This document shows positions 698 through 19,305 of a DNA stretch of 19,305 bases, piece after piece. Position 1 is the stretch's first letter; each line of letters begins with the position of its first letter. The stretch is taken from the NCBI GenBank assembly GCA_038320275.1, contig JBBQEB010000066.1, forward strand, positions 1 through 19,305. Reading direction: 5' to 3'. The notes below the pieces were generated by a model, which was not told where the DNA came from, searched no databases, and saw nothing but the letters and a program-made list of their open reading frames with translations. The stretch is from Myxococcales bacterium. GTDB lineage: Bacteria > Myxococcota > Myxococcia > Myxococcales > Anaeromyxobacteraceae. The translations under genes were made by a program, and so were the position numbers.

Positions 698-700
698 CGT

Positions 701-1423: not shown

Positions 1424-1432
1424 CGCCCAAGC

Positions 1433-3267: not shown

Positions 3268-3355
3268 GCCCGGGGAGGTAGCCGCCGCCGGGCGCCGCGG
3301 CAAGCGACCCGGAGCTCGGCGGCCAACTGTCCGACGAGGAGCGACGCGGGGCCGG

Positions 3356-4081: not shown

Positions 4082-4147
4082 GCCGGGAAGTGTACCTCAG
4101 CCCGAGAGGGATGGACTGCTCGGCCCGGCTGCGGGCGGTCTCCGCTC

Positions 4148-4831
4148 TCAGGCCCCGCTGGCAAACACCCAGCGCTCACTCTCCCGGACGAGCTTCGACA
4201 CCCGGCGCTCCCGGACCGGCGGGGCGCTTCCTCTTCTGACCTCGACGTCCTCTCCCACCTCCGCCCCGTCCCGCTCCACGCGCACCTGCCACCCGAGCAC
4301 GCGTGCCCGCGCGGGGCTCGCGCTCTCCGCGCGCAGCCGCGCGACCGCAGCTTCCCGGCCCTCCGGACCGCCCGCGTAGCCCGACCCCAGGAGGCGCTCG
4401 AAGGCAGCCGCGTCCCCACGCTGTCGCGCGTCGTGCCGGCGGAAGAGTGGCAGGAGCACGCCGCGGAGCCGGTCGAACTGGTCGCCCTCGCCGCACCAGC
4501 CCGCGATCGCGCACCGCTTCATGTGGAAGCGCTCGCGGCCCACGTAGGCGAGGCTCGCCTGCTGGTCGCGCCAGACCACCCGCCCTTCCGCCTCCAGCAT
4601 GGCGACCACGGTGGCGCGCGCGCCTTCCACGACAGGCGACACGTCGGAGAAATGCACCGGCACGAGCTCCACCGTGCCGCCCCCCTTGAAGCCATAGACG
4701 TCGTCGAGCTGGGCGCGATCCTGCCGGTCCAGGGCCTCGCGCACCTGCGTCTCGGGGCTCCGCAGGGACGGCGCGCAGGATGCGAGGCGGCCCCCGAAGG
4801 CCCAGACGAGGAACAGCGCCGCGAGCGCCAT
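4148..4831 (-). CDS. Hypothetical exported or membrane-anchored protein, possibly NTF2/SnoaL-like domains
   Basis: The frame of ORF 4148..4963 has protein-like composition from ATG 4831 (MALAALFLVWAFGGRLASC...). The C-terminal KLVRESERWVF resembles NTF2-like ends. The start is uncertain (TTG 4963 is an alternative). Confidence 0.65.
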   Translation of the reverse strand: MALAALFLVWAFGGRLASCAPSLRSPETQVREALDRQDRAQLDDVYGFKGGGTVELVPVHFSDVSPVVEGARATVVAMLEAEGRVVWRDQQASLAYVGRERFHMKRCAIAGWCGEGDQFDRLRGVLLPLFRRHDARQRGDAAAFERLLGSGYAGGPEGREAAVARLRAESASPARARVLGWQVRVERDGAEVGEDVEVRRGSAPPVRERRVSKLVRESERWVFASGA

Positions 4832-4946
4832 GCCGCCGGGGACGAGGTACGGAGCCCCGGCTCGGTGAGAGCGGTCGGCCTTTCCGCCCGCGCCGATGCG
4901 CGAGAGGTCGCCCTGCGAGGTGCGCGTGCGGCCCCGCTCGCCGAAC

Positions 4947-5723
4947 CTACCGGAGCGAGGCAAGGAGCTTCTCGGCGGCCGCGCGCCGCGCGTCCTGCGG
5001 GTGCTTCACGAGGAGTTGCTGGAGCGCCTGCTGCGCGCGGTAGCGCTCGTCCATCTTCAGATAGGCCTGCGCGAGCCCGTACAGTGCGGCGGGCTCCTGA
5101 CGCGAGCCCGGGTAGTCCCGCACGAGCCCCTCCAGCCGGGACGCCGCACCGGCCCAGTGCCCGCGCTTGGCGTAGAAGTCGGCTGCATACCACTCGTGCT
5201 CCGCGAGCTGTCCGCGGGCCGACGCCAGAGCCTTCTCCGCTTCCGGCCGGTGCTTCGACTGCGGGTAGTTCTTGACGAACTCGGCGAGCGCCTTCGCGGC
5301 CTCGCGCACCTGCGTCAGATCCTTCTCGTATCCGGGAGGAAAGAGGAAGAAGTCGCTGGGCGCGTCCTTCCAGCGCGAGAGGCCGACCCGGTAGGCGGCG
5401 TAGTCGGCCTGCTCGTGGTTCGGGTGGAGCCGGACGAATTGCGCGTACGCGTCCGCCGCCTCCGTGAGCCGGTCCTGCTCGAACTTCACGTCGGCGAGCC
5501 GCAGGTCGGAGAGGGCGGAGTACTTGGAGAACGGGTACTTCGTCCGCACGTGCTCGAAGAACCTGGTGGCTTCGGGAAAGTTGCGGGCCTTCAGCTCCAC
5601 GTTCCCGGACAGGAAGTCCTCTTCGGCGCTCTTCCCATACCTGGCGTCCCCTCCGGTGAGAGAGCCACGGCTCGTCGAGCAGGCGGCGAGAAGCAGGGAG
5701 AGAGCGGCGAAGCGGCGGAGCAT
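4947..5723 (-). CDS. bamD: Outer membrane protein assembly factor BamD (ComL/YfiO lipoprotein)
   Basis: From ATG 5723: MLRRFAALSLLLAAC lipobox; YPFSKYSALSDLRLADVKF, FVRLHPNHEQADYAAYRVG, LAEHEWYAADFYAKRGHWAGAASR, typical BamD TPRs. Confidence 0.92.
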   Translation of the reverse strand: MLRRFAALSLLLAACSTSRGSLTGGDARYGKSAEEDFLSGNVELKARNFPEATRFFEHVRTKYPFSKYSALSDLRLADVKFEQDRLTEAADAYAQFVRLHPNHEQADYAAYRVGLSRWKDAPSDFFLFPPGYEKDLTQVREAAKALAEFVKNYPQSKHRPEAEKALASARGQLAEHEWYAADFYAKRGHWAGAASRLEGLVRDYPGSRQEPAALYGLAQAYLKMDERYRAQQALQQLLVKHPQDARRAAAEKLLASLR

Positions 5724-5777
5724 GGGCGGAGCGGGAGGATAGTCCAAACCGCGGCGGGACGCAGCAGGCGCGAAGGA

Positions 5778-5860
5778 TCGACCGCGACCGCGACCTTCAC
5801 TGTGACCTCGACCACGACTGCGACCGCGATCCCCGACCTCGACTGCGACCTCGACCTCGA
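5778..5860. repeat. Degenerate hexamer tandem repeat (consensus NCGACC), about 13-14 units
   Basis: tcgacc gcgacc gcgacc ttcact gtgacc tcgacc acgact gcgacc gcgatc (c) ccgacc tcgact gcgacc tcgacc, in the recX-bamD intergenic space. Confidence 0.85.
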
Positions 5861-5885
5861 AGGAGACCGCGGCCGCTTCCTCGGC

Positions 5886-6440
5886 TCACTCCTCGAGCTC
5901 CTCCATCCGCCCGACCACCCTCGCGACCACCTCTCCTCCGAACCCCCTCACAAGGAGGAAGCGCGAGAGCCTGGCTCGCCCCTTCGCGTCGCTGGGCAGC
6001 TTCCCGCCGCGCAGCTTCTTCGCCAGCGCGACACGGCAGAGGGTCACCTCGGCCGGCTCGCGCTCGCCCCGGCGCGGGACCTCGGCGGCGCGCTCCTCGA
6101 GCGCGGCGATCACTGCCTGAGCCGCTGCCGCGCTGGGGATACCCTCCGACACCAGCCGCCGCTCCGCCGCGCGAGGGCCAGCCCTCCCCCCGTCGAGCAG
6201 CGCCCTCGCCCTCGCCCGGGCATAGGCGACGTCGTCGAGGTAACCCAGCCGCCCCGCCCAGCGCAGCACCTCCTCCGCCTCGGCCTCGAAGCCGGCGCGG
6301 ACGAGGCGGGCGCGGAGCTGCACCTCGGTCCGCGCATGGAACGCGAGCACCCGCAGGGCGAGGGCGCGCGCACGCTCGAGCGGCGACTCCTCGGTGGAGG
6401 GACTGGCCGATCCCGCGTTTCGCGTCGCGCGCCGCGGCAC
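5886..6440 (-). CDS. recX: Regulatory protein RecX
   Basis: The likely start is GTG 6440, 2 nt after the pilT stop. ALALRVLAFHARTEVQLRARL, GYLDDVAYA, GPRAAERRLVSEGI and RLSRFLLVRGF match the RecX three-helix-bundle repeats. Confidence 0.85.
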   Translation of the reverse strand: MPRRATRNAGSASPSTEESPLERARALALRVLAFHARTEVQLRARLVRAGFEAEAEEVLRWAGRLGYLDDVAYARARARALLDGGRAGPRAAERRLVSEGIPSAAAAQAVIAALEERAAEVPRRGEREPAEVTLCRVALAKKLRGGKLPSDAKGRARLSRFLLVRGFGGEVVARVVGRMEELEE

Positions 6441-6442
6441 GG

Positions 6443-7654
6443 TCAGAAGCGCTCGATCTGGAACTCGTCCTCGGGCGCGGGCCGTGCGGGCGCAGGCGCC
6501 GCGACCACCGCCGGGGCTTGCCTGCTGGAAGCTTCTCGCGCAGCGCCCGGCTTCTCGAACCCGTCCCACCGCGCGTCACTGGTGCCCGACACACCGGAGA
6601 CGCGCAGCGCGAAGTCGTCCGGGTTGGTGGCCTGGCGCAGCGCCTCCTCGTAGGTGACCCAGCCGGCGCGCAGCAGGCTCATGAGGCTCTGGTCGAACGT
6701 CTGCATGCCGTAGGTGGTATGTCCCTGCGCGATGGCCTCGGGGATGAGCTTGGTTCGATCCTTGTCCTCGATGAGCTCCCGCACCCGCGCCGTGACGAGC
6801 ATCACCTCGGTGGCCGGCACGCGGCCCTTGCCATCCGCTCGCGGGACCAGCCGCTGCGACACCACCCCGCGGAGCACCGACCCGAGCTGCACCCGCACCT
6901 GCTTCTGCTGGTAGGGAGGAAAGGCCGAAATGATCCGGTTGATCGTCTCGGTGGCGTCGAGCGTGTGAAGCGTCGAGAGCACGAGGTGACCCGTCTCCGC
7001 CGCGGTGAGCGCGGTCTCGATGGTCTCGAGGTCGCGCATCTCGCCCACCAGGATCACGTCGGGGTCCTGGCGAAGCGCGCTCTTCAGCGCCTGCCCGAAG
7101 CTCATCGTGTCGACGCCCACCTCGCGCTGGTTCACCAGGGACCGCTTGTCGCGGATGAGGAACTCGATGGGATCCTCGATGGTGATGATGTGGCGCGTCT
7201 CGTGCGTGTTCACGTGGTCGATCATCGCCGCCAGCGGGGTCGACTTGCCCGACCCGGTGGTGCCGGTGACGAGCATGAGGCCGCGCTGCTCGGAGGCGAG
7301 CTCCTCGACCACCTTGGGCAGCATGAGCCCCTCGATGGACTGGATCCTGAACGGGATGACGCGGAACACGGCGCCCGTCGAGCCGCGCTGCTGGAAGACG
7401 TTCACCCGGAACCGGCCGAGCCCGGGCACGCCGTAAGCGAGGTCCACCTCGTTGGTCTGACGGAACTTCTCGCGCTGGAACTCGCTCAGGACGCCGAATG
7501 CCATCCGCGTCACCTCCTCGGCGGGGAGGCGGGGCGCGTCCTTCAGGGCGAGGAGCTTGCCGTCCACCCGCAGCATCGGCGGCAGCCCCGCCTTGAGGTG
7601 GATGTCGCTCGCGCTCGCGCGCAGGGCGACCTGCAGGATCTCGTTGAGCTCCAT
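6443..7654 (-). CDS. pilT: Type IV pilus twitching-motility ATPase, PilT/PilU family paralog
   Basis: 403 aa with ASDIHLKAG, RFRVNVFQQRG, Walker A GTTGSGKS, TIEDPIEF, ALRQDPDVILVGEMRD, AAETGHLVLSTLHT and GMQTFDQSL. It has RVRELIED in place of AIRNLIRE and is not in a pil cluster. Confidence 0.92.
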   Translation of the reverse strand: MELNEILQVALRASASDIHLKAGLPPMLRVDGKLLALKDAPRLPAEEVTRMAFGVLSEFQREKFRQTNEVDLAYGVPGLGRFRVNVFQQRGSTGAVFRVIPFRIQSIEGLMLPKVVEELASEQRGLMLVTGTTGSGKSTPLAAMIDHVNTHETRHIITIEDPIEFLIRDKRSLVNQREVGVDTMSFGQALKSALRQDPDVILVGEMRDLETIETALTAAETGHLVLSTLHTLDATETINRIISAFPPYQQKQVRVQLGSVLRGVVSQRLVPRADGKGRVPATEVMLVTARVRELIEDKDRTKLIPEAIAQGHTTYGMQTFDQSLMSLLRAGWVTYEEALRQATNPDDFALRVSGVSGTSDARWDGFEKPGAAREASSRQAPAVVAAPAPARPAPEDEFQIERF

Positions 7655-7714
7655 CCGGTCGAGCGTAGCACCCGCAATCGAGTGGTGCGAGCGGTGGAGG
7701 GCCCGGAAACGCGC

Positions 7715-7742
7715 GCGGCCCGCCGCGTGTGCGACGGGCCGC
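7715..7742 (-). terminator. GC-rich hairpin downstream of rpsI, putative intrinsic terminator or stabiliser
   Basis: Minus-strand RNA GCGGCCCGUCGC-ACAC-GCGGCGGGCCGC forms a 12-bp stem (one G-U) with a 4-nt loop. The U tract is weak (GCGCGUUUCC). Confidence 0.55.
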
Positions 7743-7787
7743 TGGAATGTCGGTGCCGGTGGGCTGCGGCCCCCCCGGGAGGAAGCG

Positions 7788-8177
7788 CTACCGCTTGGAG
7801 AACTGGAAGCGCTTGCGGGCGCCGGGACGGCCGTACTTCTTGCGCTCGACGGCGCGCGCGTCGCGGGTCACGAAACCGGCCTTCTTGAGGACCGGCCGGT
7901 ACTCCGGATTCATCTCCATGAGCGCGCGCGTGATGCCGTGTCGGATCGCGCCGGCTTGGCCGGAGAGCCCGCCGCCGTGCGCCTTCACGAACACGTCGAG
8001 CTTGCCCATCTGGTCGACGAGCTTGAGCGGCTCGACCAGGATCATCTTCGAGGTCTCGCGGCCGAAGTACACGTCGATGGACCGGTCGTTGATCGTGATG
8101 TTGCCCGTGCCGGGCGCGAGGCGGACGCGCGCGACGGACTCCTTGCGGCGGCCGACGGAGATGTGGAGCTGGGGCAT
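7788..8177 (-). CDS. rpsI: 30S ribosomal protein S9
   Basis: [44 protein letters not shown]...[10 protein letters not shown]. Confidence 0.99.
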
Positions 8178-8192
8178 CGCGATTCCTCGATC

Positions 8193-8639
8193 TTACAGCG
8201 AGAGCTTGAGCGCCTGGGGCTTCTGCGCGACGTGCGGGTGCTCGCCCCCAGCGTACACCTTGAGCTTGCGCATCATGTCCCGGCCGAGCGTGCTCCGGGG
8301 CAGCATCCGCCGCACCGCGTTCAGGAAGATCGCGTCGGGGTGGCGCTGCCGGAGCTTCTCGGGCGGGGTCTGCTTGAAGCCGCCGGGGTGCATGGTGTGC
8401 GTGTAGTACAGCTTGTCCGTCTCCTTGTTGCCGCTGAAGCGGACCTTCTCGGCGTTCACCACCACCACGAAGTCGCCCACGTCCATGGAGGGCGTGTAGC
8501 TCGGCTTGTGCTTGCCCTTGAGGACGATCGCGACCTGGCTGGCGGCGCGGCCAACGGGCAATTCCGCCACATCGACGACCCACCACTTGCGGTCCTTCAG
8601 GGCCTCCGACCTCGTCGCGCTGTGGGTGGTCTTGTTCAT
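8193..8639 (-). CDS. rplM: 50S ribosomal protein L13
   Basis: RKWWVVD, GKHKPSYTPSMDVGDFVVVVNAEKV, AVRRMLP, KLKVYAGGEHPHVAQKP; canonical rplM-rpsI operon. Confidence 0.99.
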   Translation of the reverse strand: MNKTTHSATRSEALKDRKWWVVDVAELPVGRAASQVAIVLKGKHKPSYTPSMDVGDFVVVVNAEKVRFSGNKETDKLYYTHTMHPGGFKQTPPEKLRQRHPDAIFLNAVRRMLPRSTLGRDMMRKLKVYAGGEHPHVAQKPQALKLSL

Positions 8640-8677
8640 GGAAGAACCTGCCAGGACTCCGGGAAAATGGAGGGTGC

Positions 8678-8706
8678 CTTTTAGAGGAGCGCCGGGGCGA
8701 TGTCAA
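8678..8706 (-). promoter_or_regulatory. Sigma70-type promoter of rplM-rpsI
   Basis: Minus strand TTGACA (8706-8701), 17-nt spacer, TAAAAG (8683-8678), 38 nt upstream of the rplM ATG. Confidence 0.75.
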
Positions 8707-8761
8707 GGAGCGCGCGCGCCCGACGCCACCGCGGCGCCGTGAAGTTTCGCTCCCCAGCATG

Positions 8762-10786
8762 TCACGCTTTGGGGGCGGAGAGGCGCGCCCGGAGCTTCGA
8801 GAGCACCTCTGCCGACCTCACCGCGACCTCCTGCGGCGAGTCGCGCTCGCGCAGCGGGTCATGCAGCTCGAAGGCTCCCGCGGGCAGATCGGCGAGGAAG
8901 CGGCTGGGCGTCCTTCGCTCGAGCTTGCCGCGCCGGGTGCGGGACACCGCTCGCGTGAGGACGAGCTTCTCCCGGGCGCGGGTGATGCCGACATAGGCGA
9001 GCCGCCGCTCCTCCTCGATGTCGCGCGCCTCGCCCTGGATGCCCGCGCAGGGGAGCAGATCCTCCTCCAGCCCCACCAGGAAGACCAATGGGAACTCGAG
9101 TCCCTTGGCGGCGTGCAGGCTCATGAGCGACACCCCCGCCTCGGCCTTCGCGTCGTCCGCATCGCGCGAGTCGAGGGCGAGCTTCGCCAACCAGTTGGGG
9201 AGCGTCGGCTTCCTCGTGGTCCTCTCCGCCCAGCCGTCCACCGACCGCAGCAAGGACTCCATGGCCTCGACCTTTCGCGTCGCTGCCGCGGCCGACTTCA
9301 CGGAGGCGCGGGCGTGCGCGGCGAGGTCCACCTCCGCCACCAGCGCGCGGGCCGTCGCGCCCAGCGGAGCCGAGCGGAAGCGCTCCGCGTAGCGGTCCAG
9401 GAGCGCGGCGAAGGTGGCCATGCGCTCGGCCGCCGAGCGCGGCAGCCCGGGGATCTCGCCCGCCCGGCGCAGCGCCTCCAGGAGCCCGATGCTCCGCTCC
9501 ACCGCGAAGTCGTGGGCCCGGTCGAGGGAGGCGTCGCCGATACCCCGGGCCGGGACGTTGACGACTCGAGACAGGGCGATCTCGTCGGTGGGATACGCGC
9601 AGACCTTGAGATAACCGAGCACGTCGCGCACCTCGGCCCGGTCGAAGAACGCCGGCCCTCCGCGCACGTGGTACGGCACGCCGAGCTCGCGCAGCGCTTC
9701 CTCCAGCGGCCGCGACTGTGCGTTGAGGCGGTACAGCACGGCAAAATCGGACAGCGCCCGCCCGCTCCCGCGCGCCTTGGCGATGGCCCCCGCCACGTGG
9801 CGCGCTTCCTCCTCCTCGTCCTCGAAGGCGCCTACACCCACCGGCTCGCCCTCCCCGGCCACCGTCCAGAGCAACTTGGGCTTGCGGTGGGGATTCTTGC
9901 CGATGACTGCATTGGCGCAGGCGAGGATGCGGCCGGTCGAGCGGTAGTTCTGTTCCAGCCGCACCTCCACAGCGCCGGGAAAGTGCCGGTCGAAGCGGAG
10001 GATGTTCTTCACCTCGGCGCCGCGCCAGCCGTAGATCGCCTGGTCGTCGTCCCCCACCGCGCACACGTTGCGGCGCTCGCCGCCGAGGAGCTTCAGGAGC
10101 TCGAGCTGGCAGCGGTTCGTGTCCTGGTACTCGTCGACGAGCAGGTAGCGGTAGCGCTCCTGCCAGCGGGCGCGCAGCGCCGCGTCGGCGCGGAGCAGCT
10201 CGACCGGCCGGGCGATGAGGTCGTCGAAGTCGACGGTGCGCTGGGCCCGGAGCGCCGCCTGGTAGCGGGGGAAGACCTCGGCCGCGACCAGGTCGTAGTC
10301 GTCCCCCGCGCCTTCGGGCCGCACGGCCACCGCCGTCCGGAGCGCGTTCTTGGTCCCCGACAGGAGGAAGAGCACGCGGCGCGCGTCGAACGCGCGGTCG
10401 TCCACCTTCACCTCACCCATGCAGCGCTTGACGAGAGCCGCCTGGTCGCCGGCGTCGGCGATGCCGAAGCGTCGCGGCAGCCCCGCCGCGACGTGCTCCT
10501 CCTCCAGGAAGCGCAGGCCGAAGGCATGGAAGGTGGAGACCGCCACCTCGCGTCCGCGGTCGCCCACCAAGGCCGACACCCGCTCGCGCATCTCCGCCGC
10601 GGCCTTGTTGGTGAAGGTCACCGCCAGGATGGCCGCCGGAGGCACCCCGTTCGCGAGGAGCCAGGCCACCCGATGGACGATGACGCGCGTCTTCCCGGAG
10701 CCCGCCCCGGCCAGCACGAGGAGCGGGCCCTCGGTGGTGGTGACGGCCTGGCGCTGCGGTGGGTTGAGGCTGGAGAGGTCGATCAC
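8762..10786 (-). CDS. ATP-dependent DNA helicase, UvrD/Rep/PcrA family (superfamily 1A)
   Basis: 674 aa with LNPPQRQAV, LAGAGSGKTRV, TFTNKAAAEM, LVDEYQDTN, VGDDDQAIYGWRGA, LEQNYRST, SLHAAKGLEF and EERRLAYVGITRA. The C-terminus is short, with no obvious Tudor tail (Rep-like length). Confidence 0.96.
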   Translation of the reverse strand: MIDLSSLNPPQRQAVTTTEGPLLVLAGAGSGKTRVIVHRVAWLLANGVPPAAILAVTFTNKAAAEMRERVSALVGDRGREVAVSTFHAFGLRFLEEEHVAAGLPRRFGIADAGDQAALVKRCMGEVKVDDRAFDARRVLFLLSGTKNALRTAVAVRPEGAGDDYDLVAAEVFPRYQAALRAQRTVDFDDLIARPVELLRADAALRARWQERYRYLLVDEYQDTNRCQLELLKLLGGERRNVCAVGDDDQAIYGWRGAEVKNILRFDRHFPGAVEVRLEQNYRSTGRILACANAVIGKNPHRKPKLLWTVAGEGEPVGVGAFEDEEEEARHVAGAIAKARGSGRALSDFAVLYRLNAQSRPLEEALRELGVPYHVRGGPAFFDRAEVRDVLGYLKVCAYPTDEIALSRVVNVPARGIGDASLDRAHDFAVERSIGLLEALRRAGEIPGLPRSAAERMATFAALLDRYAERFRSAPLGATARALVAEVDLAAHARASVKSAAAATRKVEAMESLLRSVDGWAERTTRKPTLPNWLAKLALDSRDADDAKAEAGVSLMSLHAAKGLEFPLVFLVGLEEDLLPCAGIQGEARDIEEERRLAYVGITRAREKLVLTRAVSRTRRGKLERRTPSRFLADLPAGAFELHDPLRERDSPQEVAVRSAEVLSKLRARLSAPKA

Positions 10787-11364
10787 GCGAGCAGCGCCAC
10801 GATGAAGAAGCCGGCGCCGCCCGCCCCGAGGGCCATCGATCCCGCCCAGACCATGCGGTTGCGCGTGAGCGCCGCCACCGCGCCCAGCGCGATGGCCACC
10901 TGGAAGAACGCCACCGCGTACGCGTATCGATGGTGAAGGTGCATGAGATGCTCGGCCTCGCGCGCCTTCTCGTCGCGCTCGCGCTCCAGCCCCTCGGCCT
11001 CGCCCTTGATCTCCACCTGCTCCTCGGCATAGCGGCCGCGCTTCTCGGCGTGCTCGCCCGGCGGCTCCTTACCCGCGGCCAGCCAGGCGGCCCGGGTGGC
11101 CTCGGCCACCGCCCCTTTCACGCCCTTCGCCTGGTAGTAGGCCCACTGGTCGGAGGCCTGCGCCTGGAGGCGCGTGGCGGCCGTCTCGAGCCGGAGCGCC
11201 TCGTTCACGGTGCCACCGGCGCGCAGCGAGGCGAGCGCGGCCAGCGCCGCCAGGACCGCGGTGGTGAGCGCGATGCGGCGGAGGAAGTTGCCGCCCTCCC
11301 TCTCGAGCTCCTCGTGGATCGCCTCGTGGAGCGTCTCGGTCTCGACCTCAGGGCCTTCGGGCAT
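10783..11364 (-). CDS. DUF4337-like membrane protein
   Basis: 193 aa with a TM segment (IALTTAVLAALAALASL), ASDQWAYYQAKGVK, a coiled coil, then AVAFFQVAIALGAVAALT and a C-terminal TM. Its stop overlaps the helicase start (GTGA). Confidence 0.8.
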   Translation of the reverse strand: MPEGPEVETETLHEAIHEELEREGGNFLRRIALTTAVLAALAALASLRAGGTVNEALRLETAATRLQAQASDQWAYYQAKGVKGAVAEATRAAWLAAGKEPPGEHAEKRGRYAEEQVEIKGEAEGLERERDEKAREAEHLMHLHHRYAYAVAFFQVAIALGAVAALTRNRMVWAGSMALGAGGAGFFIVALLA

Positions 11365-11403
11365 AGGGCCGAGCGGTGTAGCACGGGCGTCCGACCGGCG
11401 CGA

Positions 11404-14001
11404 TCAGGCCGGCGCGTCGAGCACCTCGCGGACGCGGCGCAGGAGCTCGTCCGGCGTGAAGGGCTTCGCCAGGAAGGCGTGACCCGAGCTCGACACTTCC
11501 TCCGACTCGATCTGCCCGCCGGTGTAACCGGAGGTGTAGAGGACGCGCACGCCGGGGCGCATTCCGAGGATGTGCTTTGCGAGCGCGGGACCCCTCATCT
11601 CTGGAAGGATCACGTCGGTGAGCAGGAGGTGGATCCGCTCCGGATAGCCCATGACGATGTCGATGGCCTCGCGCGGTCGGGCGGCCTCTGCCACCTGATA
11701 GCCCGCCCCCTCGAGCACCCGGCGCGCCAGCGTTCGCACCGGAGCGTCGTCCTCCACGAGGAGCACCGTCTCCGTCCCGTCGGCTGGCGCGCGCGGCGCC
11801 TCTCCGTGCGCCTCCGGCGTCCCACCGCGCGCCGCAGGAGACGTCTCGGCGGCGCGCGGCAGGTAGACGTGAAAGGTGGTGCCCTTCCCGGGAGCGCTCT
11901 CCACCCGGATCGCACCTCCACTCTGGGTCACGATTCCGTAGACGGTGGAGAGCCCGAGGCCGGTGCCCTTGCCCGCCGGCTTGGTGGTGAAGAAGGGCTC
12001 GAACATCCGCTTCGCGGTCTGCTCGTCCATCCCCACCCCGCTGTCGGAGATGGTGAGCCGTACCAACTCGCCGCGGTGGAAAGAGGGGCCTTCCTCCAGC
12101 GCCGCCGCCTCGGCGGGAGGGGCATCGTCCACGGCGATGGAGAGGCGTCCTCCGGACGGCATCGCGTCCCGCGCGTTCACCACCAGGTTGAGGATCACCT
12201 GCTCCAGGTGACCGGGGTCGGCCTTCACCTTGCCCGCCCCCGCTGCAAGGCGCGTCTCCAGGCTGATCGCCTCGCCGATGAGCCTGCGCAGCATCTTCTC
12301 GAGGCCACGTACCGTCGCGCCGAGATCCACCACCCTCGGCTCGAGCACCTGCCGCCGGGAGAAGGCGAGGAGCTGTCTCGTGAGGCCCGCCGCCCGCTCC
12401 GCGGCTCCCAGGATCTCGTCCACGTCCGGGGCGCTCGGGTGACCCGCGCCCAGGTCGTCCCTGACGAAGCGCCCGAACGACAGGATGGCGGTGAGGAGGT
12501 TGTTGAAGTCGTGGGCGATCCCGCCCGCGAGCTGCCCGACCGCCTCCATCTTCTGCGCCTGGCGAAGCTGCTCCTCCAGCCGGCGGCCCTCCGTCACGTC
12601 GCGGAAGGCGAGCACCGCTCCGAGGTCCGCTCCCCCCTCGCTCACCTTCGAGACGGCGTACTCCACGGGCAGGAGGGTTCCATCCCTCCTCGAGAAAGTG
12701 GCGGCGAGCTGACGAGGGGCGCTCTCGGAGGGGCTGCCAGCGGCGCGCTCCTCGCCCGGCTCCAGCACCGGCGCCTCGCCCGGCGCGAGCAGCTCCCGGA
12801 CCGCGCGGCCCATGAGGTCGGTCGCGGGCCTGGCGAGAGCGCGCGCGGCGGCGGGGTTCGCGAAGGTGATGCGCCCGTCCCGGTCGAGCCCGAGGAGCCC
12901 CTCCGAAGCCGAGTCGAGGATGAGCGCGTTCTGCCGCGAGAGCCGCTCGATGGAGCGCGCCATGTCGTCGAACGCCGCGCCGAGCTGGTCGAGCTCGCCC
13001 GCGCCGGCGGCCAGGCCGGTACGGGCGCGCAGATCGCCGCGCGCGAGCCGGCGGGCAGCGCGAGTGATGACGTCGATGCGGCGCACGAGCAGGATCTCGC
13101 CCATGGAGAGGGCGGCCACGATGGCGATGATCGCGAGCCCCCCGAAGCCCAGCAGCGTGCGCGTGAAGAGGTCGCGGAGCTGCGCCTGGGCAGCTTCCGT
13201 CGGCAGCCCCAGCGCCACCAGCATCGCCGGCTTTCCTCCCACCCCGGGGACCGGCTCGAGCGCGTAGGCCCGCCGGACCCCGTCGTCGTCTTCGAGCTCG
13301 GCCTGCGCGCTCGCCCCATTCCTCAGCTGTGCGAGGAGTGGCGAGCTCCACTCGGCGCCGACCCCCTGGGCCGCGGGCCGGCGCGCGAGGAGGACGCCGC
13401 GCGAGTCGGCGATCACCGCCACGGCGCCTTCTGGAAGGGTCTGCGCGTCGAGCCGGCGCTGGAGCTCGACCAGGTCGAGCCCGGCCGTGACCACGGCCTC
13501 CACCGTACCGTCCTCGCGCAGCACCGGCGCCGCGAAGTAGAACGATGGCCTTCCATTGATGCGCCCGACGGCGTACTCGCCGGCGGTGAAGGAACGGCTC
13601 TCCAGCACGCCGCGAAAGTGGGCCCGCTCGGCGAGGTTCACGCCGGGGCCCGCCGGGACGGCGGAACAGACCACCGTGCCGCGCATGTCGGCGAGCGAGA
13701 GGTTGTTGAAGATGGTGCTCTCCCGAGCGATGGCAGCCAACATGGGGTCGCAGCGGCGGGCATCGACCGGCGCGGCGAGCGCGGTGATGTGCGACAGCCC
13801 CGCCAGGAGCCCGCGGGCCGACTCGACGGAGCGCTGCTGCTCGTCGGCGAGGAGGCGCCCCGCGCGCTGCGCCTCGGCCCGGACGCCTTCACGGACGCGG
13901 CGATCCGCCTCCCATGCGGCGTACACCAGGAGCGCGATGCCGGGAAGCACCGCGACCAGGACCAGAGCGAGCAGCCGTGATCTCAGGCTGGCAAGGCCCA
14001 G
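11404..14001 (-). CDS. Hybrid sensor histidine kinase/response regulator (TM-dCache-TM-HAMP-PAS-HisKA-HATPase-REC; CckA-like)
   Basis: [24 protein letters not shown]-box, [29 protein letters not shown] and [15 protein letters not shown]; receiver VLLVEDD...[11 protein letters not shown]...FLAKPF. The N-terminus is extended here to CTG 14001 behind SD AGGAGGT (the ORF track starts at GTG 13950). Confidence 0.93.
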
Positions 14002-14105
14002 GGCACACCTCCTGCCCGGTAGTGTAGCCCGAGCGCGACGCAGGGCGACTTCCCGTCCTCCGGCCGTTCCTTCCCGCCCGGCCGCCGAGGCTCCAAGATG
14101 GCGCG

Positions 14106-14954
14106 GTGAACCCCCTCGTCCTCATGGCGACCGCGCTGGCCACCGTCACGCCTTCACTGTCTGTCGAGCTCGTCCCACCGCGGGCCCGGCCCGGAGATGC
14201 CTTCCTGGTGGTCGTGCGGGGCGCGGGAGAGACGCCGCTCGCCGCGACGGTGGGGGGAAGGCCTCTCCGCTTCTTTCCGGTTCGCGGGGGCATGGCCGCG
14301 GTGGGCGGCCTCCCCGTCGAGACGCCGCCCGGCCCGCTCGCGGTCGAGTTGCAGGGTCCAGCCGAGGCGCGCCCCCGGGTCGTTGCGCGCCTGGAGGTGG
14401 AGCCTGCGCGGTTCCCGCGGCGCGAGCTGGCGGTGGAGAAGCGTTTCGTCGCGCCGCCCTCGCCCGAGTTGCAGCGCCGCATCGACGAGGACCGGGCCGC
14501 CTTCGCCCGCGCCTTCACGCAGCCCCCCGCGGCTCCGCACTTCTCGAGCAACTTCGCGCTCCCGCGCGAGGCCAGGATCACGGCGAATTACGGCGAGGAG
14601 CGCACGCTCAACGCCAGCAAGGCCTCCCAGCACTACGGCATGGACCTCGCCGGGAAGGTGGGAGAGCCCATCGCCGCCGCCAACGCGGGCGTGGTGGTCA
14701 TGGTCCGGGAGTGCTGGGCGGCGGGGCGCGCGGTGGTGCTGTGGCACGGCGGAGACATGTACACCACCTACTTTCACCTCTCGCGCGCGGATGTCCGCGA
14801 GGGCGATCGGGTCCGCCGCGGGCAGCGCATCGGAGCGGTCGGCGCGAGCGGGCGCGTGACCGGTCCGCACCTGCACTGGGGCGTGCGCGTGGGCCAGCTC
14901 TACGTGGATCCGAGGACCGTCCTCGCCCTGCCCTTCGATCGCCTTCTGCGGTAG
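14106..14954 (+). CDS. M23 family metallopeptidase (exported)
   Basis: Signal-like N-terminus; HYGMD (HxxxD), YTTYFHLS, VREGDRVRRGQRIGAVGASGRVTGPHLHWG (HxH), YVDP. Confidence 0.93.
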   Translation: MNPLVLMATALATVTPSLSVELVPPRARPGDAFLVVVRGAGETPLAATVGGRPLRFFPVRGGMAAVGGLPVETPPGPLAVELQGPAEARPRVVARLEVEPARFPRRELAVEKRFVAPPSPELQRRIDEDRAAFARAFTQPPAAPHFSSNFALPREARITANYGEERTLNASKASQHYGMDLAGKVGEPIAAANAGVVVMVRECWAAGRAVVLWHGGDMYTTYFHLSRADVREGDRVRRGQRIGAVGASGRVTGPHLHWGVRVGQLYVDPRTVLALPFDRLLR

Positions 14955-14970
14955 GGAGAAACCTGCCCCT

Positions 14971-15768
14971 CTACGCCAGCCCCGCTCCCCTCACGTCCGC
15001 GAGCACCTGGAGGAGTTGCGGGTGGACCGCTGGCGTGGCGGCACAGATGTGGCCCTCCTGCATCATCGCGTCGCCGCCCACGAAGTCCGTGACGATGCCG
15101 CCCGCCTCCCGGACCAGCAGGATCCCCGGGCCCACGTCCCACGCCTTCAGCTTCATCTCCCAGAACCCGTCGAAGCGGCCGCACGCCACGTAGGCGAGGT
15201 CGAGCGCGGCGCTCCCCATGCGCCGGACGGCGCGGGCGCGCGTCATGTAGGCCGCGAACAGCCGGAGCGGCATCTCGAAGTCCTGGTGGATGTCGTACGG
15301 GAAGCCGGTGCAGAGGAGCGCGCGGTGCAGCTCCCCTCCCTTGGAGACGGAGATGGGCTCGCCATCGAGGGTTGCCCCCTCGCCCCGCGCGCCGAGGAAG
15401 ATCTCGTCGCGGATGGGATCGTACGTCGCCGCGGCGGCGAGCCCCTCCTCGTCCTCCACCGCGACGTTCACCGCGAAGTGTGGGAGGCCGTGCGCGTAAT
15501 TGGTGGTGCCATCCAGCGGGTCCACGATGAAGCGGAGCGGGCCACCGGAGGAGGCGCCCGACTCCTCGGCCAGGATGGCGGCGCTCGGGTGGCGCTCGCG
15601 CAGGAAGGCGAGCAGCACCTCCTCGCTCGCCTTGTCGGCGTCGGTGACGAGGTCGATGCCGCCCTTGTACTCGACCGTCCGGAGCTTGCCGAACCGCTCG
15701 CGGACCACCGCGCCTCCGCGGCGGGCAGCCTCCGCGCACGTCTTCCTCAGTTCGCCGACGTGGGACAT
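14971..15768 (-). CDS. suhB: Inositol monophosphatase family protein (SuhB-like)
   Basis: From ATG 15768: DLVTDADKASE, ILAEES, IVDPLDGTTNYAHG, RRMGSAALDLAYVACGRFDGFWE, WDVGPGILLVREAGG. Confidence 0.92.
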   Translation of the reverse strand: MSHVGELRKTCAEAARRGGAVVRERFGKLRTVEYKGGIDLVTDADKASEEVLLAFLRERHPSAAILAEESGASSGGPLRFIVDPLDGTTNYAHGLPHFAVNVAVEDEEGLAAAATYDPIRDEIFLGARGEGATLDGEPISVSKGGELHRALLCTGFPYDIHQDFEMPLRLFAAYMTRARAVRRMGSAALDLAYVACGRFDGFWEMKLKAWDVGPGILLVREAGGIVTDFVGGDAMMQEGHICAATPAVHPQLLQVLADVRGAGLA

Positions 15769-15892
15769 GTCGCAGGAGGATAGGCACGGACGGCCCAGCC
15801 CGCACGCGGGGGACGGGTCAGGTGTGCAGGATGGACCGGCGGTCGGTTGGGAGCTCGCCCCCGCGAGTGCGGCGCGCCTTTCGTTTGCCTGA

Positions 15893-15921
15893 TCGACGGG
15901 CATGAGGCGGGGCACTAGACT
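15893..15921 (+). promoter_or_regulatory. Putative sigma70 promoter of a leaderless transcript for the 15928 gene and the HDAC gene
   Basis: TCGACG (15893-15898), 17-nt spacer, TAGACT (15916-15921), 6 nt, then ATG 15928; no SD. Confidence 0.55.
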
Positions 15922-15927
15922 GCCGAC

Positions 15928-16227
15928 ATGCTCAAGGCGCTCGCGGTGGTGCGCACCGTCTATCTCGTCTTCATCGTCGGCTACACCATCCGTGCGCTGC
16001 CGATCTTCACGCACGTTGCCAACACCTTCGACGAGAGCTTCGCGCGAAACTCGGCCAAGCTCGAGCTCCTGCAGCGCGCGGCCTGGCTGGCCGTCGGCTG
16101 GATCGCCTTCGACACGCTGGTGGGCTGGCTCCTCGCAGCCCAGGCCACCCGCCGGGCCGCCCGCCTCCGGGCCGCCGCCACGAAGCCTGCCCCGGCCGTC
16201 GCCCCGCCCCCGCCGCCGCGCGCGTGA
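15928..16227 (+). CDS. Small hypothetical membrane protein (two predicted TM helices, Pro-rich tail)
   Basis: 99 aa with hydrophobic segments VVRTVYLVFIVGYTIRALPIF and AAWLAVGWIAFDTLVGWLLAA; GC3-rich codon usage; 9 nt before the HDAC ATG. Confidence 0.75.
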   Translation: MLKALAVVRTVYLVFIVGYTIRALPIFTHVANTFDESFARNSAKLELLQRAAWLAVGWIAFDTLVGWLLAAQATRRAARLRAAATKPAPAVAPPPPPRA

Positions 16228-16236
16228 CGCTTTCGC

Positions 16237-17976
16237 ATGCCGGCGCATCTCCTGGCGAGGCTTCGCGACAGGCTGCTCCGCCGGCCCCTGCCGGTCTGGT
16301 ACTCACCTTCCTATCGCCTCCCGCTGAGCGGCGTGGAGGCCTCCGCCGGCATCGAGCCGCGCCGCGCCGACTTCGTCGCCTGGTGGCTCGTGGAGTCTGG
16401 GGTGATCGACGGCGGGCTCCTGCGCACCCCGCTCCGGATCCCGTACGCCGACCTCGACCGCGTGCACACGCCGGAGCTGCTGGAGTCGCTGAGCCACCCC
16501 GAAGCACTGGCGAGCATCTTCGCCGTCGATCCTTCGGACGTGCCGGTGGACGAGCTTCTCGCGACGGTTCGGCTGGCCTGTGGCGGCACGCTCGCCGCGG
16601 CGCGCGAGGCCCTCGCCGGTGGGGGCGTCACGCTGAACCTCCTGGGCGGGTTCCATCACGCCGGGCCCGGCAGCGCCGGTGGCTTCTGTCCCCTCAACGA
16701 CGTAGCCGTTGCCATCGCGGCGGTGCGGGCCGATGGCTTCGAGGGCCAGGTCGCCGTCCTCGACCTCGACGCGCATCCACCGGACGGCATCGGGGCCTGC
16801 GTCGAGAACGATGCCGCCGTCTGGGTGGGCTCACTCTCGGGATCCGACTGGGGACCGCTCCCGCGCGTGGACGAGACGGTCCTGCCAGAGGGAACGGAGG
16901 ACGAGCCGTATCTGGAGTCGCTCCAGGCGCTCCTGGGCCGCATGCCGGAAGCCGGGCTCGCGTTCGTGCTGGCCGGTGGCGACGTGCTCGCGGGCGACCG
17001 CTTCGGAAGGCTCGGCCTCACCCTCGCCGGCGCGCGGCGGCGCGACCTGACGGTGGCGCGCGCGCTCTCGGGCGTCCCCAGCGTCTGGCTCCCGGCGGGC
17101 GGCTACACCTCCGAGTCCTGGCGCGTGCTCGCCGGCACCGCGCTCGCGCTGGCCTCCGGCTCCGAGGTCCCCATTCCAGAGGGCGCGGATCCCCTCCCGG
17201 CCCGCTTCGCCGCCGTGGCGGCGGGCCTCTCGCCGGAGGACCTGGGAGAGCTGGATTTCGACACGGCCGACATGGAGGAGGCGCTCGGGCTCGCGCCGCG
17301 AGGCGGGCGCCATCGCCTCCTCCTCGGCTACTACACGGCGTCGGGCCTGGAGCACGCCTTCCACCGCTACGGCGTGCTGGAGCAGCTCCGACGGCTGGGG
17401 TTCTCGGGCTTCCGCGTCGCCTTCGACGCGGGGGGGACCGGCGAGCGGCTGAGGCTGTTCGGCACGACCGACGGCGTCGAGCACGTGCTCGTCGAGGAGA
17501 TCCTCGAGCGCCGCAAGTTCGGCGGGCGCGAGGTGCTCTACATCCACTGGCTGAACCTGCGAAACCCTCGCGCCCGCTTCAGCGACCTGCGGCCGCGGCT
17601 GCCCGGCCAGGAGGTGCCGGGGCTCGGGATGGCGCGCGAGATGGGCGAGATCCTCGGCATCATGGCGCGCCGGCTCGGCCTCGCCGCCGTGGTCTTCCGG
17701 CCGGCCCACTTCCACACCGCCTACTCCGTGCGGCGTCCCTTCGCCTTCGTCGTGCCGGAGCGGCAGGGACGTTTCGAGGCCCTGGTGCGCGATCTCGCGC
17801 GGCTGCCGCTGCTGGAGGCCACGGCGGCGGTGGCGGACGGGCGCGTGTGGCTCGGCGGCTCCCCCTACACCTGGGAGGCGGACGAGATGGCCGTGGGCTG
17901 GGAGTGGAGCGAGGTGGCGCAGCGCGACGAGGCGATCCGGCACGAGCGAGAGCGCTGCAGCTTCGAGGTGCGCTGA
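16237..17976 (+). CDS. Zn-dependent histone deacetylase-family (AcuC/APAH-like) amidohydrolase fused to an uncharacterised, GNAT-like C-terminal domain
   Basis: RVHTPELL, GGTLAAAR, GGFHHAG..SAGGFCPLND, VLDLDAHPPDG, LAGGDVLAGDRFG and LPAGGY give a complete HDAC catalytic set in the first ~310 aa. About 230 extra C-terminal aa contain LYIHWL...RLPGQEVPGLG. Confidence 0.9.
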   Translation: MPAHLLARLRDRLLRRPLPVWYSPSYRLPLSGVEASAGIEPRRADFVAWWLVESGVIDGGLLRTPLRIPYADLDRVHTPELLESLSHPEALASIFAVDPSDVPVDELLATVRLACGGTLAAAREALAGGGVTLNLLGGFHHAGPGSAGGFCPLNDVAVAIAAVRADGFEGQVAVLDLDAHPPDGIGACVENDAAVWVGSLSGSDWGPLPRVDETVLPEGTEDEPYLESLQALLGRMPEAGLAFVLAGGDVLAGDRFGRLGLTLAGARRRDLTVARALSGVPSVWLPAGGYTSESWRVLAGTALALASGSEVPIPEGADPLPARFAAVAAGLSPEDLGELDFDTADMEEALGLAPRGGRHRLLLGYYTASGLEHAFHRYGVLEQLRRLGFSGFRVAFDAGGTGERLRLFGTTDGVEHVLVEEILERRKFGGREVLYIHWLNLRNPRARFSDLRPRLPGQEVPGLGMAREMGEILGIMARRLGLAAVVFRPAHFHTAYSVRRPFAFVVPERQGRFEALVRDLARLPLLEATAAVADGRVWLGGSPYTWEADEMAVGWEWSEVAQRDEAIRHERERCSFEVR

Positions 17977-18003
17977 ACGGGTCGCCGCGGACGTGCCACC
18001 CCT

Positions 18004-18540
18004 TCACGGCTCGGCCAGCAGCGCCTCGACCTCCTGCCGCTCCACCGCCGCGCGACCCGCCGTCCAGCCTTGGTGCACGTGCCGCACGATGCCGCGGCGG
18101 TCGACCACCAGCGTCACGGGCATGTAGACGACGTCGAACCGCTGCACCCGCTCCCCACCCTTGTCCCACAGCATCGGGAACCCCACCGGGAGCTTCGCCA
18201 GGTAATCGACGATCTGGGCGCGGTCCTCGTCGATGGAGATGCCGTACACGGACAGCCCGCGCGGACCGAGCTCGCGGGAGAGGGCGTCGAGCGCGGGGAG
18301 CGCGTCCTTGCAGGGCTCGCACCAGGTGGCCCAGAAGTCGACCACGCGCACCCTTCCCTGATCGCCGCCGACGTCCACCAGGAGGCCGTGGAGGTCGGGA
18401 GCGGAGAGCGCGAGCGGTTTGCCGACATGCCGCGCGCTGGGCGGAGGAGGCCGCGCGGCGGCACAGCCGGCCGAGCCGAGGGCGGCGGCCATGGCGAGCG
18501 CGAAAGCCAGAGACCCTGGGTGCGAAGGGACCGTGATCAC
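18004..18540 (-). CDS. TlpA/ResA-family thiol-disulfide oxidoreductase, probable lipoprotein
   Basis: VVDFWATWCEPCK, YGISID, MPVTLVVDRRGIVRH; hydrophobic leader ending ALGSAGC. Confidence 0.92.
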   Translation of the reverse strand: MITVPSHPGSLAFALAMAAALGSAGCAAARPPPPSARHVGKPLALSAPDLHGLLVDVGGDQGRVRVVDFWATWCEPCKDALPALDALSRELGPRGLSVYGISIDEDRAQIVDYLAKLPVGFPMLWDKGGERVQRFDVVYMPVTLVVDRRGIVRHVHQGWTAGRAAVERQEVEALLAEP

Positions 18541-18605
18541 GCACGCGATGGTAACGCGCGGGTCCTCACTCGCCCCCGGAAATCCGGTGAGATCGCTCGT
18601 AGCCC

Positions 18606-18647
18606 CTGACCGGGATCAAGAGTTTCATGACCCGGCTGTGCGATGCT
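18606..18647 (+). promoter_or_regulatory. FNR/CRP-family-like box plus extended -10 upstream of the cytochrome gene
   Basis: CTGAC-CGGG-ATCAA (18606-18619) versus FNR consensus TTGAT-N4-ATCAA; TG-C-GATGCT at 18639-18647. Confidence 0.45.
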
Positions 18648-18712
18648 GCCACGCCAGCGTAGCCTGGGGCGCCGCGGGGCGCGAGGACACGCGGAGCACG
18701 GGAGGAACGGAC

Positions 18713-19305
18713 ATGGTGGTGACCTGTCGACGTTGGGGGGAGCTCGGGCTCTCGCTCTCGCTCGCGCTCGCCTGCGCGTGCGGTGATGCCCGCCCGCTGC
18801 GGCTGGCCGCCGATGGCGGAACGCTGGTGAACGGTGCGCCCGCGGAGTGCACGCGCTGTCACGGTTACCCGCCCAACAAGGATGCTCACTACGCGCATGC
18901 GGGCCTCGCCCCGGCGGACGGCGGGGTGGGCGGCGTGCCGGAGGGCTCCCAGACCTTCTTCGGCCAGGCGTACGGCTGCGAGCAGTGCCACAAGAACGTC
19001 CAGCGCGTGACCGAGCCGGACCACATCGTCCGGGCGAACGGCCAGCCCGTTCCGCGGCCGGCCGAGGTGCGCTTCGATGACCCGAACGCGCTCGCCGCCG
19101 GTCCCAGCGGCGGGGCGCGGGCAGGCCCGCCGTCGTACGACCCGACCAGCCAGACCTGCTCCAACGTCTACTGTCACGGCGCGACCCTGCGGAACCAGGT
19201 TCCGGGGCTCGTGATCGCGCCGCGCTGGTCCGACGCCGGGAAGGGCATCGTGGGCTGCGGCAGCTGCCACGGCATCCCCCCCGCCAACCACCAGCAGGGG
19301 ATCTC
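18713..19305 (+). CDS. Multiheme c-type cytochrome lipoprotein with CxxCH and CxxxxCH motifs (GSu_C4xC__C2xCH type), 3' end beyond the window edge
   Basis: SD GGAGG at 18701 and ATG 18713: MVVTCRRWGELGLSLSLALACACGD (lipobox-like)...CTRCH...CEQCH...CSNVYCH...CGSCH... The frame is open to the window end, so it is absent from the ORF track. Confidence 0.93.
   Translation, partial: MVVTCRRWGELGLSLSLALACACGDARPLRLAADGGTLVNGAPAECTRCHGYPPNKDAHYAHAGLAPADGGVGGVPEGSQTFFGQAYGCEQCHKNVQRVTEPDHIVRANGQPVPRPAEVRFDDPNALAAGPSGGARAGPPSYDPTSQTCSNVYCHGATLRNQVPGLVIAPRWSDAGKGIVGCGSCHGIPPANHQQGI

Follow-up and report, generated by a model that had tools for sequence, protein, structure and literature searches.

The DNA analysed here is a window of 19,305 nucleotides (positions 1 to 19,305, forward strand, of contig JBBQEB010000066.1, assembly GCA_038320275.1) from a Myxococcales bacterium of the Anaeromyxobacteraceae, with a G+C content of about 73%. 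The gene in question lies on the plus strand and encodes a zinc deacylase of class IV type joined to a C-terminal domain that is predicted to adopt the GNAT acyltransferase fold (Table 1). A preliminary description made from the sequence had placed an open reading frame (ORF) at this position and had quoted a string from its C-terminal part; the ORF exists and encodes 579 amino acids, and the string is present in the translation. Among the candidates scored, 1746 full-length homologues reached E≤0.001, and those among the 120 matches listed had lengths of 557–646 amino acids. Public records annotate only the deacylase part of such proteins, as 'histone deacetylase family', 'arginase family' or 'AcuC-like'.

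Table 1. Coordinates of the fusion gene, its domains and motifs, and the adjacent upstream gene (positions in the window).
Feature	Position	Strand	Remarks
Whole gene, deacylase + GNAT-fold fusion	16237..17976	+	579 amino acids, stop included; ORF list and translation
N-terminal class IV (HDAC11-type) zinc deacylase domain, as read from the matches	16237..17169	+	residues 1-311; PF00850, PDB sequence and fold matches
Catalytic His-His (H140, H141)	16654..16659	+	translation; conservation in relatives
Zn/K+ loop DLDAHPPDG (D176, D178, H180, D183, G184)	16762..16788	+	PP replaces the usual (H/Q)G
Third zinc-ligand Asp (D249), GGD motif	16981..16983	+	corresponds in alignment to an Asp in 9rje and 9gz5
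GGY with transition-state Tyr (Y290)	17098..17106	+	invariant
Start of C-terminal module: conserved helix DPLxARF, then low-confidence linker (residues 339-358)	17170..17331	+	
Predicted GNAT-fold core of the C-terminal domain	17332..17973	+	residues 366-579; without sequence family; AlphaFold2 model
Long conserved beta4-alpha3 loop, NPRARFSDLRPRLPGQEVPGLGM	17563..17631	+	PGLG is the predicted pyrophosphate-binding turn
Beta5-alpha4 junction, PAHFHTA	17701..17721	+	conserved P489, H493, A495
Upstream 99-amino-acid gene, two hydrophobic segments	15928..16227	+	ends 9 nt before the fusion ATG, same strand

The sole Pfam family matched by the protein was PF00850 (Hist_deacetyl; residues 40–299, E 1.2e-29, 104.1 bits against a cut-off of 27.9), and NCBIfam gave no match to it. 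By sequence, the nearest chains in the PDB were 9rje and 9gz5 (E 2e-23), with class I enzymes at 1e-14 or weaker; none of the PDB sequence matches reached beyond residue 314. A fold search with the full-length model returned 9gz5 first, the HDAC11 of Leptospira interrogans with cis-5-dodecenoic acid (E 2e-20, target-normalised template-modelling score 0.80), and next the HdaH of Vibrio cholerae with decanoic acid; 9gz5, 9gky and 9gkv filled ranks 1–5. The catalytic and zinc-ligand residues have their counterparts at the aligned positions of 9rje and 9gz5. An alignment of 18 full-length relatives shows no variation at H140, D176, D178, H180, S199, D249 and Y290, and conservation of at least 90% at H141. 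The preliminary description had listed an intact zinc-HDAC site, and His-His, D-x-H, Asp and GGY are indeed all present, with the His-His pair at exactly 16654–16659. Its comparison with AcuC has to be given up in favour of class IV (HDAC11), which is where the sequence and fold matches place the enzyme. We read the N-terminal domain as an intact deacylase of class IV type.

The protein contains LLGGFHHAG and PAGGY, and a GGGFHH-type motif in place of RPP, together with xGGY, marks cluster 5/HDAC11 according to Graf et al. (PMC11532494). PMC13325672 assigns 9RJE to clade A and 9RJD to clade B of the class IV HDAC11 homologues; the clade B enzymes are long-chain deacylases, and clade A showed no activity on peptides. 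A long acyl chain as substrate is suggested solely by these nearest solved deacylases.

An unusual zinc loop, DAHPPDG, had also been pointed out in the preliminary description, and a survey of 79 fused loci that include the HDAC part, 77 of them evaluable, bears this out. GG[FYL]HHA, xGGY and D-x-D-x-H-P-(P/A)-D-G each occurred in 77/77; DLDAHPPDG was found exactly in 74 of the 77, and each of the remaining three departs from it at a single residue. The trait of class IV at this place is HQG(N/D)G, as is also seen in the two aligned structures 9rje and 9gz5. The D-x-D-x-H-Q-G-(N/D)-G loop of class IV/cluster 5 is not matched in the window protein, Q-G being replaced by P-P, while D183 and G184 are kept; from the chemistry of HDAC8, we take D183 to be the partner of the second catalytic His. 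HQGNG or HQGDG is kept in four distant fused relatives (L048–L051 in our numbering of loci). Judged from the sequences, HPPDG is fixed in the closer clade and characteristic of it.

For the C-terminal part, residues 312–579, no match was obtained with Pfam, tried at E≤1, or with NCBIfam. The Atlas led from the domain to unnamed clusters, and a 0.81 lead to a GNAT cluster was too low to count. An AlphaFold2 model of the domain, based on an alignment of 22 rows with identities as low as 26%, had a predicted local distance difference test score (pLDDT) of 92.5 and a predicted template-modelling score (pTM) of 0.86, with all five models at pLDDT 91.2–92.5. A Foldseek search of this model against the PDB (350,542 chains) gave 19 matches at E≤1e-3, and those displayed were all GNAT-fold entries. 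The best was the acetyl-CoA (acetyl-coenzyme A)-binding C-terminal domain of Mycobacterium tuberculosis ICL2 (9obo_C at 8e-5, then 6edz), followed by NatD/Naa40, Rv1916, KacT, AtaT and Naa50. VIA, a fold search independent of Foldseek and run on 48,161 representative chains, placed Schizosaccharomyces pombe NatD first (Z 8.4, 146 residues, root-mean-square deviation (rmsd) 4.7 Å); the 50 rows listed included the non-acetyltransferases 5wd6 and 2obd, as well as 7mq8, which is not identifiable from its title. In a second VIA run on the best 997 chains of Foldseek, all 50 rows were acetyltransferase folds, with NatD at Z 7.6–8.4 (133–148 residues aligned) and ICL2 at Z 6.7–6.9.

By the calibration of VIA itself, a Z of about 8 is moderate, and best scores of 7–8 are typically reached also by models that lack a clear relative. 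Because the score is only moderate, the case for the GNAT fold is built on the concordance of Foldseek and VIA and not on the score itself. That the C-terminal region is a GNAT-fold domain is a high-confidence prediction. In this respect the GNAT reading of the preliminary description stands, the AlphaFold2 model being confident and Foldseek and VIA returning almost only GNAT folds; a non-GNAT fold, which it had named as counter-evidence, did not appear. We consider it very improbable that the arrangement is a modelling artefact or a chance order of helices and strands, with the region belonging to an unrelated fold. A Z of 7–8 would be unremarkable for such a model, and the alignment is only 22 sequences deep, but all five models reached pLDDT 91–92.5, two aligners gave almost only acetyltransferase folds from 48,161 and 350,542 chains, and the same secondary structure appeared in the full-length model. 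In addition, the profile alignment described below (hhalign probability 6.7%) falls on motif A.

The order of elements in the full-length model is a strand (431–442), a 23-residue loop, a helix (466–479), a short strand (485–487) and a further helix (492–497). Canonical GNATs bind the pyrophosphate of CoA at the beta4-alpha3 junction, and their loop at this place is far shorter than the proline-rich one of 23 residues found here. Within this loop, 18 full-length sequences show no variation at P444, F448, L455-P-G-Q458, P461, G462 and G464, and G462-L-G464 directly precedes helix 466–479. Invariant in the same 18 sequences are P489, H493 and A495, and among 22 sequences including free forms of the domain H493 is at least 90% conserved. 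The preliminary description had named a lack of conservation of the loop as evidence against its own reading; in 22 fused and free relatives, P-G-Q-x-x-P-G-L-G is invariant or nearly so. Its Q/RxxGxG motif differs in one detail, as the loop reads Q-x-x-x-G-x-G and is one residue longer. An hhalign comparison of the domain with four canonical GNATs (PF00583) encoded in the same genome gave one weak local alignment, in which E-V-P-G-L-G with the following helix and strand lies on R-R-R-G-V-G, alpha3 and beta5 of a RimI-like protein. According to the models, the invariant residues of the C-terminal domain sit at the places of the cofactor and the chemistry in GNATs, namely the beta4-alpha3 turn and the beta5-alpha4 junction. 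The variable features, R442 versus Q, H/N437 versus E/D and others, and an insertion of 8–12 residues, follow clades and not the distinction between fused and free.

This conservation bears on the idea that the GNAT-fold domain has lost the use of a cofactor and serves as a substrate-recognition or scaffold module, holding the substrate or mediating oligomerisation. Such a module would agree with the absence of a sequence signature of CoA-using GNATs; the 23-residue proline-rich loop could form a new surface, and GNAT-like domains of ICL2 also dimerise, as stated in PMC6788997. A glycine turn before alpha3 that shows no or almost no variation among fused and free forms, at identities as low as 26–35%, is instead what is expected of a phosphate-binding turn, and the conserved H493 and P489 at the beta5-alpha4 junction likewise speak against mere scaffolding. 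We regard this explanation as unlikely, and to the same low degree we would expect an acylated protein, a peptide tail, a lipid head group or another ligand to be bound by such a module.

The distribution of the domain was determined in a sample of Myxococcota genomes. It was present in 286 of 401 genomes, in 227 of the 316 high-quality genomes and in 92 of 154 genera; the count takes in the genome of the window and one unpublished genome (G196), which enters into no other result given here. Since open frames of 597–672 amino acids occur in five further families, we regard the fusion as old. A pattern scan of the genomes of 185,579 species confirmed 162 relatives, and details were taken from the best 80 of these 162. 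All of these 80 carry Myxococcota-type labels, or labels of metagenome-assembled genomes that are unspecific or doubtful. The deacylase part lies upstream in 79 of them, and the exception is cut off by the end of its contig. The fusion architecture is thus spread across the Myxococcota, and its occurrence in the window is no singular case.

Stand-alone copies, whose occurrence next to fused ones the preliminary description had left to a survey of homologues, exist as well. These free forms comprise 260–320 amino acids, begin at the DPLxARF helix and have the same invariant residues. A maximum-likelihood tree of 33 C-terminal domains (duplicates L136, L137 and L139 dropped, the partial match L036 left out) contains at least two changes between fused and free on well-supported branches. 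We also considered that the free genes might be split halves located beside an HDAC gene. This was rejected, as the ORFs scanned within about 1.5 kb on either side at five free-copy loci (L031–L035) contained no PF00850. Among the matches listed from a further homologue search, most were fragments of fused proteins. Some of the short 'free' proteins in databases are probably broken fused genes, as the case of L041 below indicates.

Several single loci were noted in this survey. In three Myxococcaceae genera (L032, L033 and L034), a free paralogue is located between greA and a gene for a PIN-PhoH ATPase; it has diverged, W438 being replaced by S and PGLG by PGLS or PGLA. At L041 (contig G389:C2, about 5070–6742, minus strand), the fused gene appears in three tblastn pieces with overlapping ends, which suggests frame shifts or sequencing errors; the separately called protein P0173 of 231 amino acids derives from a contig with an identical length of 454,661 bases. 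L036 (G035:C10:51547-51954, minus strand) is a second, partial match to the C-terminal domain (146 residues, E 5e-22) in which the family motif is lost past the beta4 region, and may be a degenerate or frame-shifted copy.

Loss of the deacylase was found in one part of the tree. In two species of genus g114, family f12, the deacylase carries H141Q and D183V while the rest is intact. These copies (L136, identical to L042, G082:C7; and L138, G057:C138) read GGFHQAG and HPPVG or HQPVG, while the Tyr, the zinc ligands and the complete GNAT-fold domain are preserved in them. As judged from these residues, they may be pseudo-deacylases. Their sister (support 97/89) is a free protein of 292 amino acids that starts exactly at the domain boundary. 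This protein (L140:1426-2304, plus strand, G087:C281) is a C-terminal domain of the fused type, 46% identical to that of the window and located in a genome of lower G+C content; its neighbours, named by eye, are a universal-stress-like ORF, a response regulator and a convergent thiolase-like gene. Because both the f12 copies lacking the catalytic dyad and their deacylase-less sister keep the C-terminal domain, we consider it an autonomous module that is able to outlive the deacylase.

These findings have to be weighed against the possibility that the domain is an acyl-CoA sensor, that is, a GNAT-fold domain that binds acetyl- or longer acyl-CoA without transferring it and gates the deacylase allosterically. 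By analogy with ICL2 this is a possible, though not a probable, explanation. Likewise possible rather than probable is its corollary that deacylation would track the acyl-CoA pool, as in M. tuberculosis ICL2. The top Foldseek match is precisely the ICL2 C-terminal domain (9obo_C 8e-5, 6edz; VIA Z 6.6–6.9), which, according to PMC6788997, is likewise a GNAT-like sequence orphan located C-terminal to an enzyme and activated by acetyl- and propionyl-CoA. The rigid packing predicted for the full-length protein (pTM 0.85) would suit allosteric gating, and so would the missing canonical R/Q of motif A and the lack of an assignable catalytic residue, to which we return below. On the other hand, the free paralogues keep the same invariant residues without having an output domain, and the domain is kept in the g114 copies and in the deacylase-less sister, whereas a pure regulator should not outlive catalysis. 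Moreover, a true enzyme, NatD, outscores ICL2 in both VIA runs.

The explanation that we place first, although tentatively and at somewhat less than an even chance, is that one chain both adds and removes N-acyl groups and combines a class IV deacylase with an acyltransferase as a writer/eraser or acyl exchanger. The GNAT-fold domain would bind acyl-CoA at the invariant PGLG turn and would move the acyl group onto an amine, and the deacylase domain would take the N-acyl group off what is presumably the same substrate. Candidate substrates are protein lysines and small or lipid amines; the chain might serve as a switch with writer and eraser, or it might exchange one acyl group for another. The acyltransferase reading is ranked first because the invariant residues of the cleft are retained in the free forms, because a free-standing GNAT-fold protein is simpler to understand as an enzyme than as a sensor without output, and because the C-terminal domain survives decay or loss of the deacylase. 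In the full-length model (pTM 0.85), pLDDT falls below 50 at residues 339–342, 344–348 and 351–358, and residues 339–358 form the sole disordered stretch. The deacylase and GNAT-fold domains are hence predicted to form one rigid unit, and for the same reason a fixed domain arrangement would be expected whether the second domain acts as an acyltransferase, a sensor or a scaffold. The most specific version of the favoured explanation would be a single-chain machine for reversible N-acylation in which a long-chain deacylase and an active acyltransferase of a so far unrecognised family, held rigidly, act on the same amine. This version appears rather doubtful as a whole; it would amount to a self-contained switch for protein fatty-acylation, or to the swap of one acyl group for another.

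A number of observations weigh against the acyltransferase reading. The top Foldseek match is a domain described in PMC6788997 as a non-catalytic acetyl-CoA sensor, and the VIA score is only moderate. The probability of the hhalign alignment to canonical GNATs was only 6.7%, Pfam searches at E≤10 with the 22 members of the C-terminal domain one by one yielded no acetyltransferase family, and a PDB search at E≤10 with a 9-sequence profile of the domain yielded 0 matches. The R/Q position of motif A is variable, and the invariant Q458 lies one residue upstream of it. A general base or acid cannot be named; the residue preceding W438 is H or N here, and E, D, R, L or N are found elsewhere. If one chain carried two opposing activities, a futile cycle would have to be prevented by some regulation, of which nothing is visible.

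The gene located directly upstream of the fusion encodes a protein of 99 amino acids that has no Pfam or NCBIfam match. It is likely co-transcribed with the fusion gene. We searched for it by tblastn at other loci. It was directly upstream in 27 of 30 Anaeromyxobacteraceae loci, with one more match being weak and two misses at contig ends, and it was found in 36 of the best 80 loci from the pattern scan, all of Anaeromyxobacter type. Among ten further loci (L037–L046), a match was obtained only in L045, from the Anaeromyxobacteraceae; the nine loci without one comprise eight outside this family and one (L044) within it. Myxococcaceae- or Polyangiaceae-type loci L099–L131 gave no match either. 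A role as universal partner was therefore rejected, since matches are confined to loci of the Anaeromyxobacteraceae type. The preliminary description had proposed this two-transmembrane-segment protein as an anchor or target; the shared strand and the 9-nt gap are correct, but it is a companion at the level of the family and not a part of the system.

In four Myxococcaceae genomes, a gene for a PAP2 membrane phosphatase takes the upstream position instead, and in three of the four a hexapeptide-repeat (LbH) transferase gene and then a PAS/GAF histidine kinase gene follow downstream. The complete order PAP2, fusion, LbH transferase and PAS/GAF kinase was seen at L037, L038 and L046, and in part at L043. 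This order could point to a membrane or lipid substrate. In other lineages the neighbours are either a class III aminotransferase or a thioesterase together with an SRPBCC protein. None of these genes is a universal partner among the loci examined, and the recurrent neighbours of membrane or lipid type are only a hint.

A scan of positions 15500–18700 revealed no sigma-70-like promoter or intrinsic terminator, which tells little for this phylum. The remainder of the window is ordinary and includes genes for Ham1, RNase PH, an amidase, an AIR-synthase-like protein, a TPR protein, a PilT-like ATPase, L13, UvrD, DUF4337, a hybrid histidine kinase, an M23 peptidase, inositol monophosphatase and a thiol peroxidase-like protein, with a multihaem cytochrome gene at the 3' end. 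Three long ORFs at 4151–5005 (minus strand), 4896–6650 (plus strand) and 7543–8757 (minus strand) had no Pfam match at E≤1e-4; given the G+C content, some of these are probably shadow frames.

A full-text search of the literature returned no description of an HDAC-GNAT fusion, of a bifunctional acetyltransferase/deacetylase or of a deacetylase fusion from Myxococcus. The available portions of PMC11532494 and PMC13325672, supplements aside, do not mention Myxococc* or discuss a GNAT or C-terminal domain, and the available portion of a review of bacterial lysine acetylation lists for Myxococcus only the NADP-sensing MxPat. Taken together with the survey of genomes, we concluded that the fusion of a deacylase with a GNAT-fold domain is a real, widespread and undescribed architecture. 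Structures and activities of bacterial class IV deacylases have become available only recently, and their physiological substrates are still to be found. A rigid fusion throughout a phylum suggests that this deacylase is tied to acyl-CoA as a donor or as a signal. The C-terminal domain would define a new family of the GNAT clan that is missed by current profile libraries. Culturable genera, represented by Myxococcus xanthus and by Anaeromyxobacter, carry the fusion gene, so that the question is directly testable.

The closest known relatives of the N-terminal part are the class IV deacylases, represented by Leptospira HDAC11 (9GZ5/9RJD), chrHDAC11-1/A (9RJE), HdaH (9GKV/9GKY) and human HDAC11. 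Their fold is shared by the N-terminal 310 amino acids, and the window protein has in common with them the His-His pair, the Asp/His/Asp zinc ligands, the Tyr, and the motifs GGFHH and xGGY. They differ in the zinc loop, which is HQG(N/D)G in class IV and HPPDG here, and in architecture: the solved class IV deacylases are single-domain proteins of about 300 amino acids, whereas the window protein has an additional GNAT-fold domain of 265 amino acids.

The best structural match to the C-terminal domain is NatD/Naa40 (4UA3, 4U9W, 7KD7; Z 7.6–8.4, rmsd 3.1–4.7 Å), the N-terminal acetyltransferase of histones H4 and H2A, whose GNAT core has an N-terminal extension like that of the domain studied here. 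The identity is 12–14% with no link between sequence families, the beta4-alpha3 loop of the window protein is much longer, and nothing suggests N-terminal acetylation as its activity. With respect to architecture, the most similar case is the C-terminal domain of ICL2 (6EDW/6EDZ/9OBO), together with Rv1916 (8G8K), which is a GNAT-like orphan fused C-terminally to an enzyme, as here. This domain has no sequence homologues, and binding of acetyl- or propionyl-CoA to it activates the enzyme, as reported in PMC6788997. While many free-standing forms of the window domain were found, none was met for the ICL2 domain in the portion of the literature covered. The partner enzyme of the ICL2 domain is a lyase and that of the window domain a deacylase, and the identity between the two domains is 12–17%.

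In Bacillus subtilis, the GNAT AcuA and the class I-like deacetylase AcuC are reportedly coupled in function on one target. These are encoded by separate genes, in contrast to the single chain of the window protein; AcuC is not of class IV, AcuA is recognisable as a GNAT by sequence, unlike the domain described here, and no link of the window protein to AcsA was seen. We know of no single-chain writer/eraser enzyme for N-acylation, and an active second domain would make this protein the first to carry writer and eraser of N-acylation on one chain. Opposing activities on a single chain are well established in the adenylyltransferase/removase GlnE, the kinase/phosphatase AceK and Rel/SpoT, whose chemistry differs from N-acylation but which follow the same logic of joined writer and eraser that we propose here.

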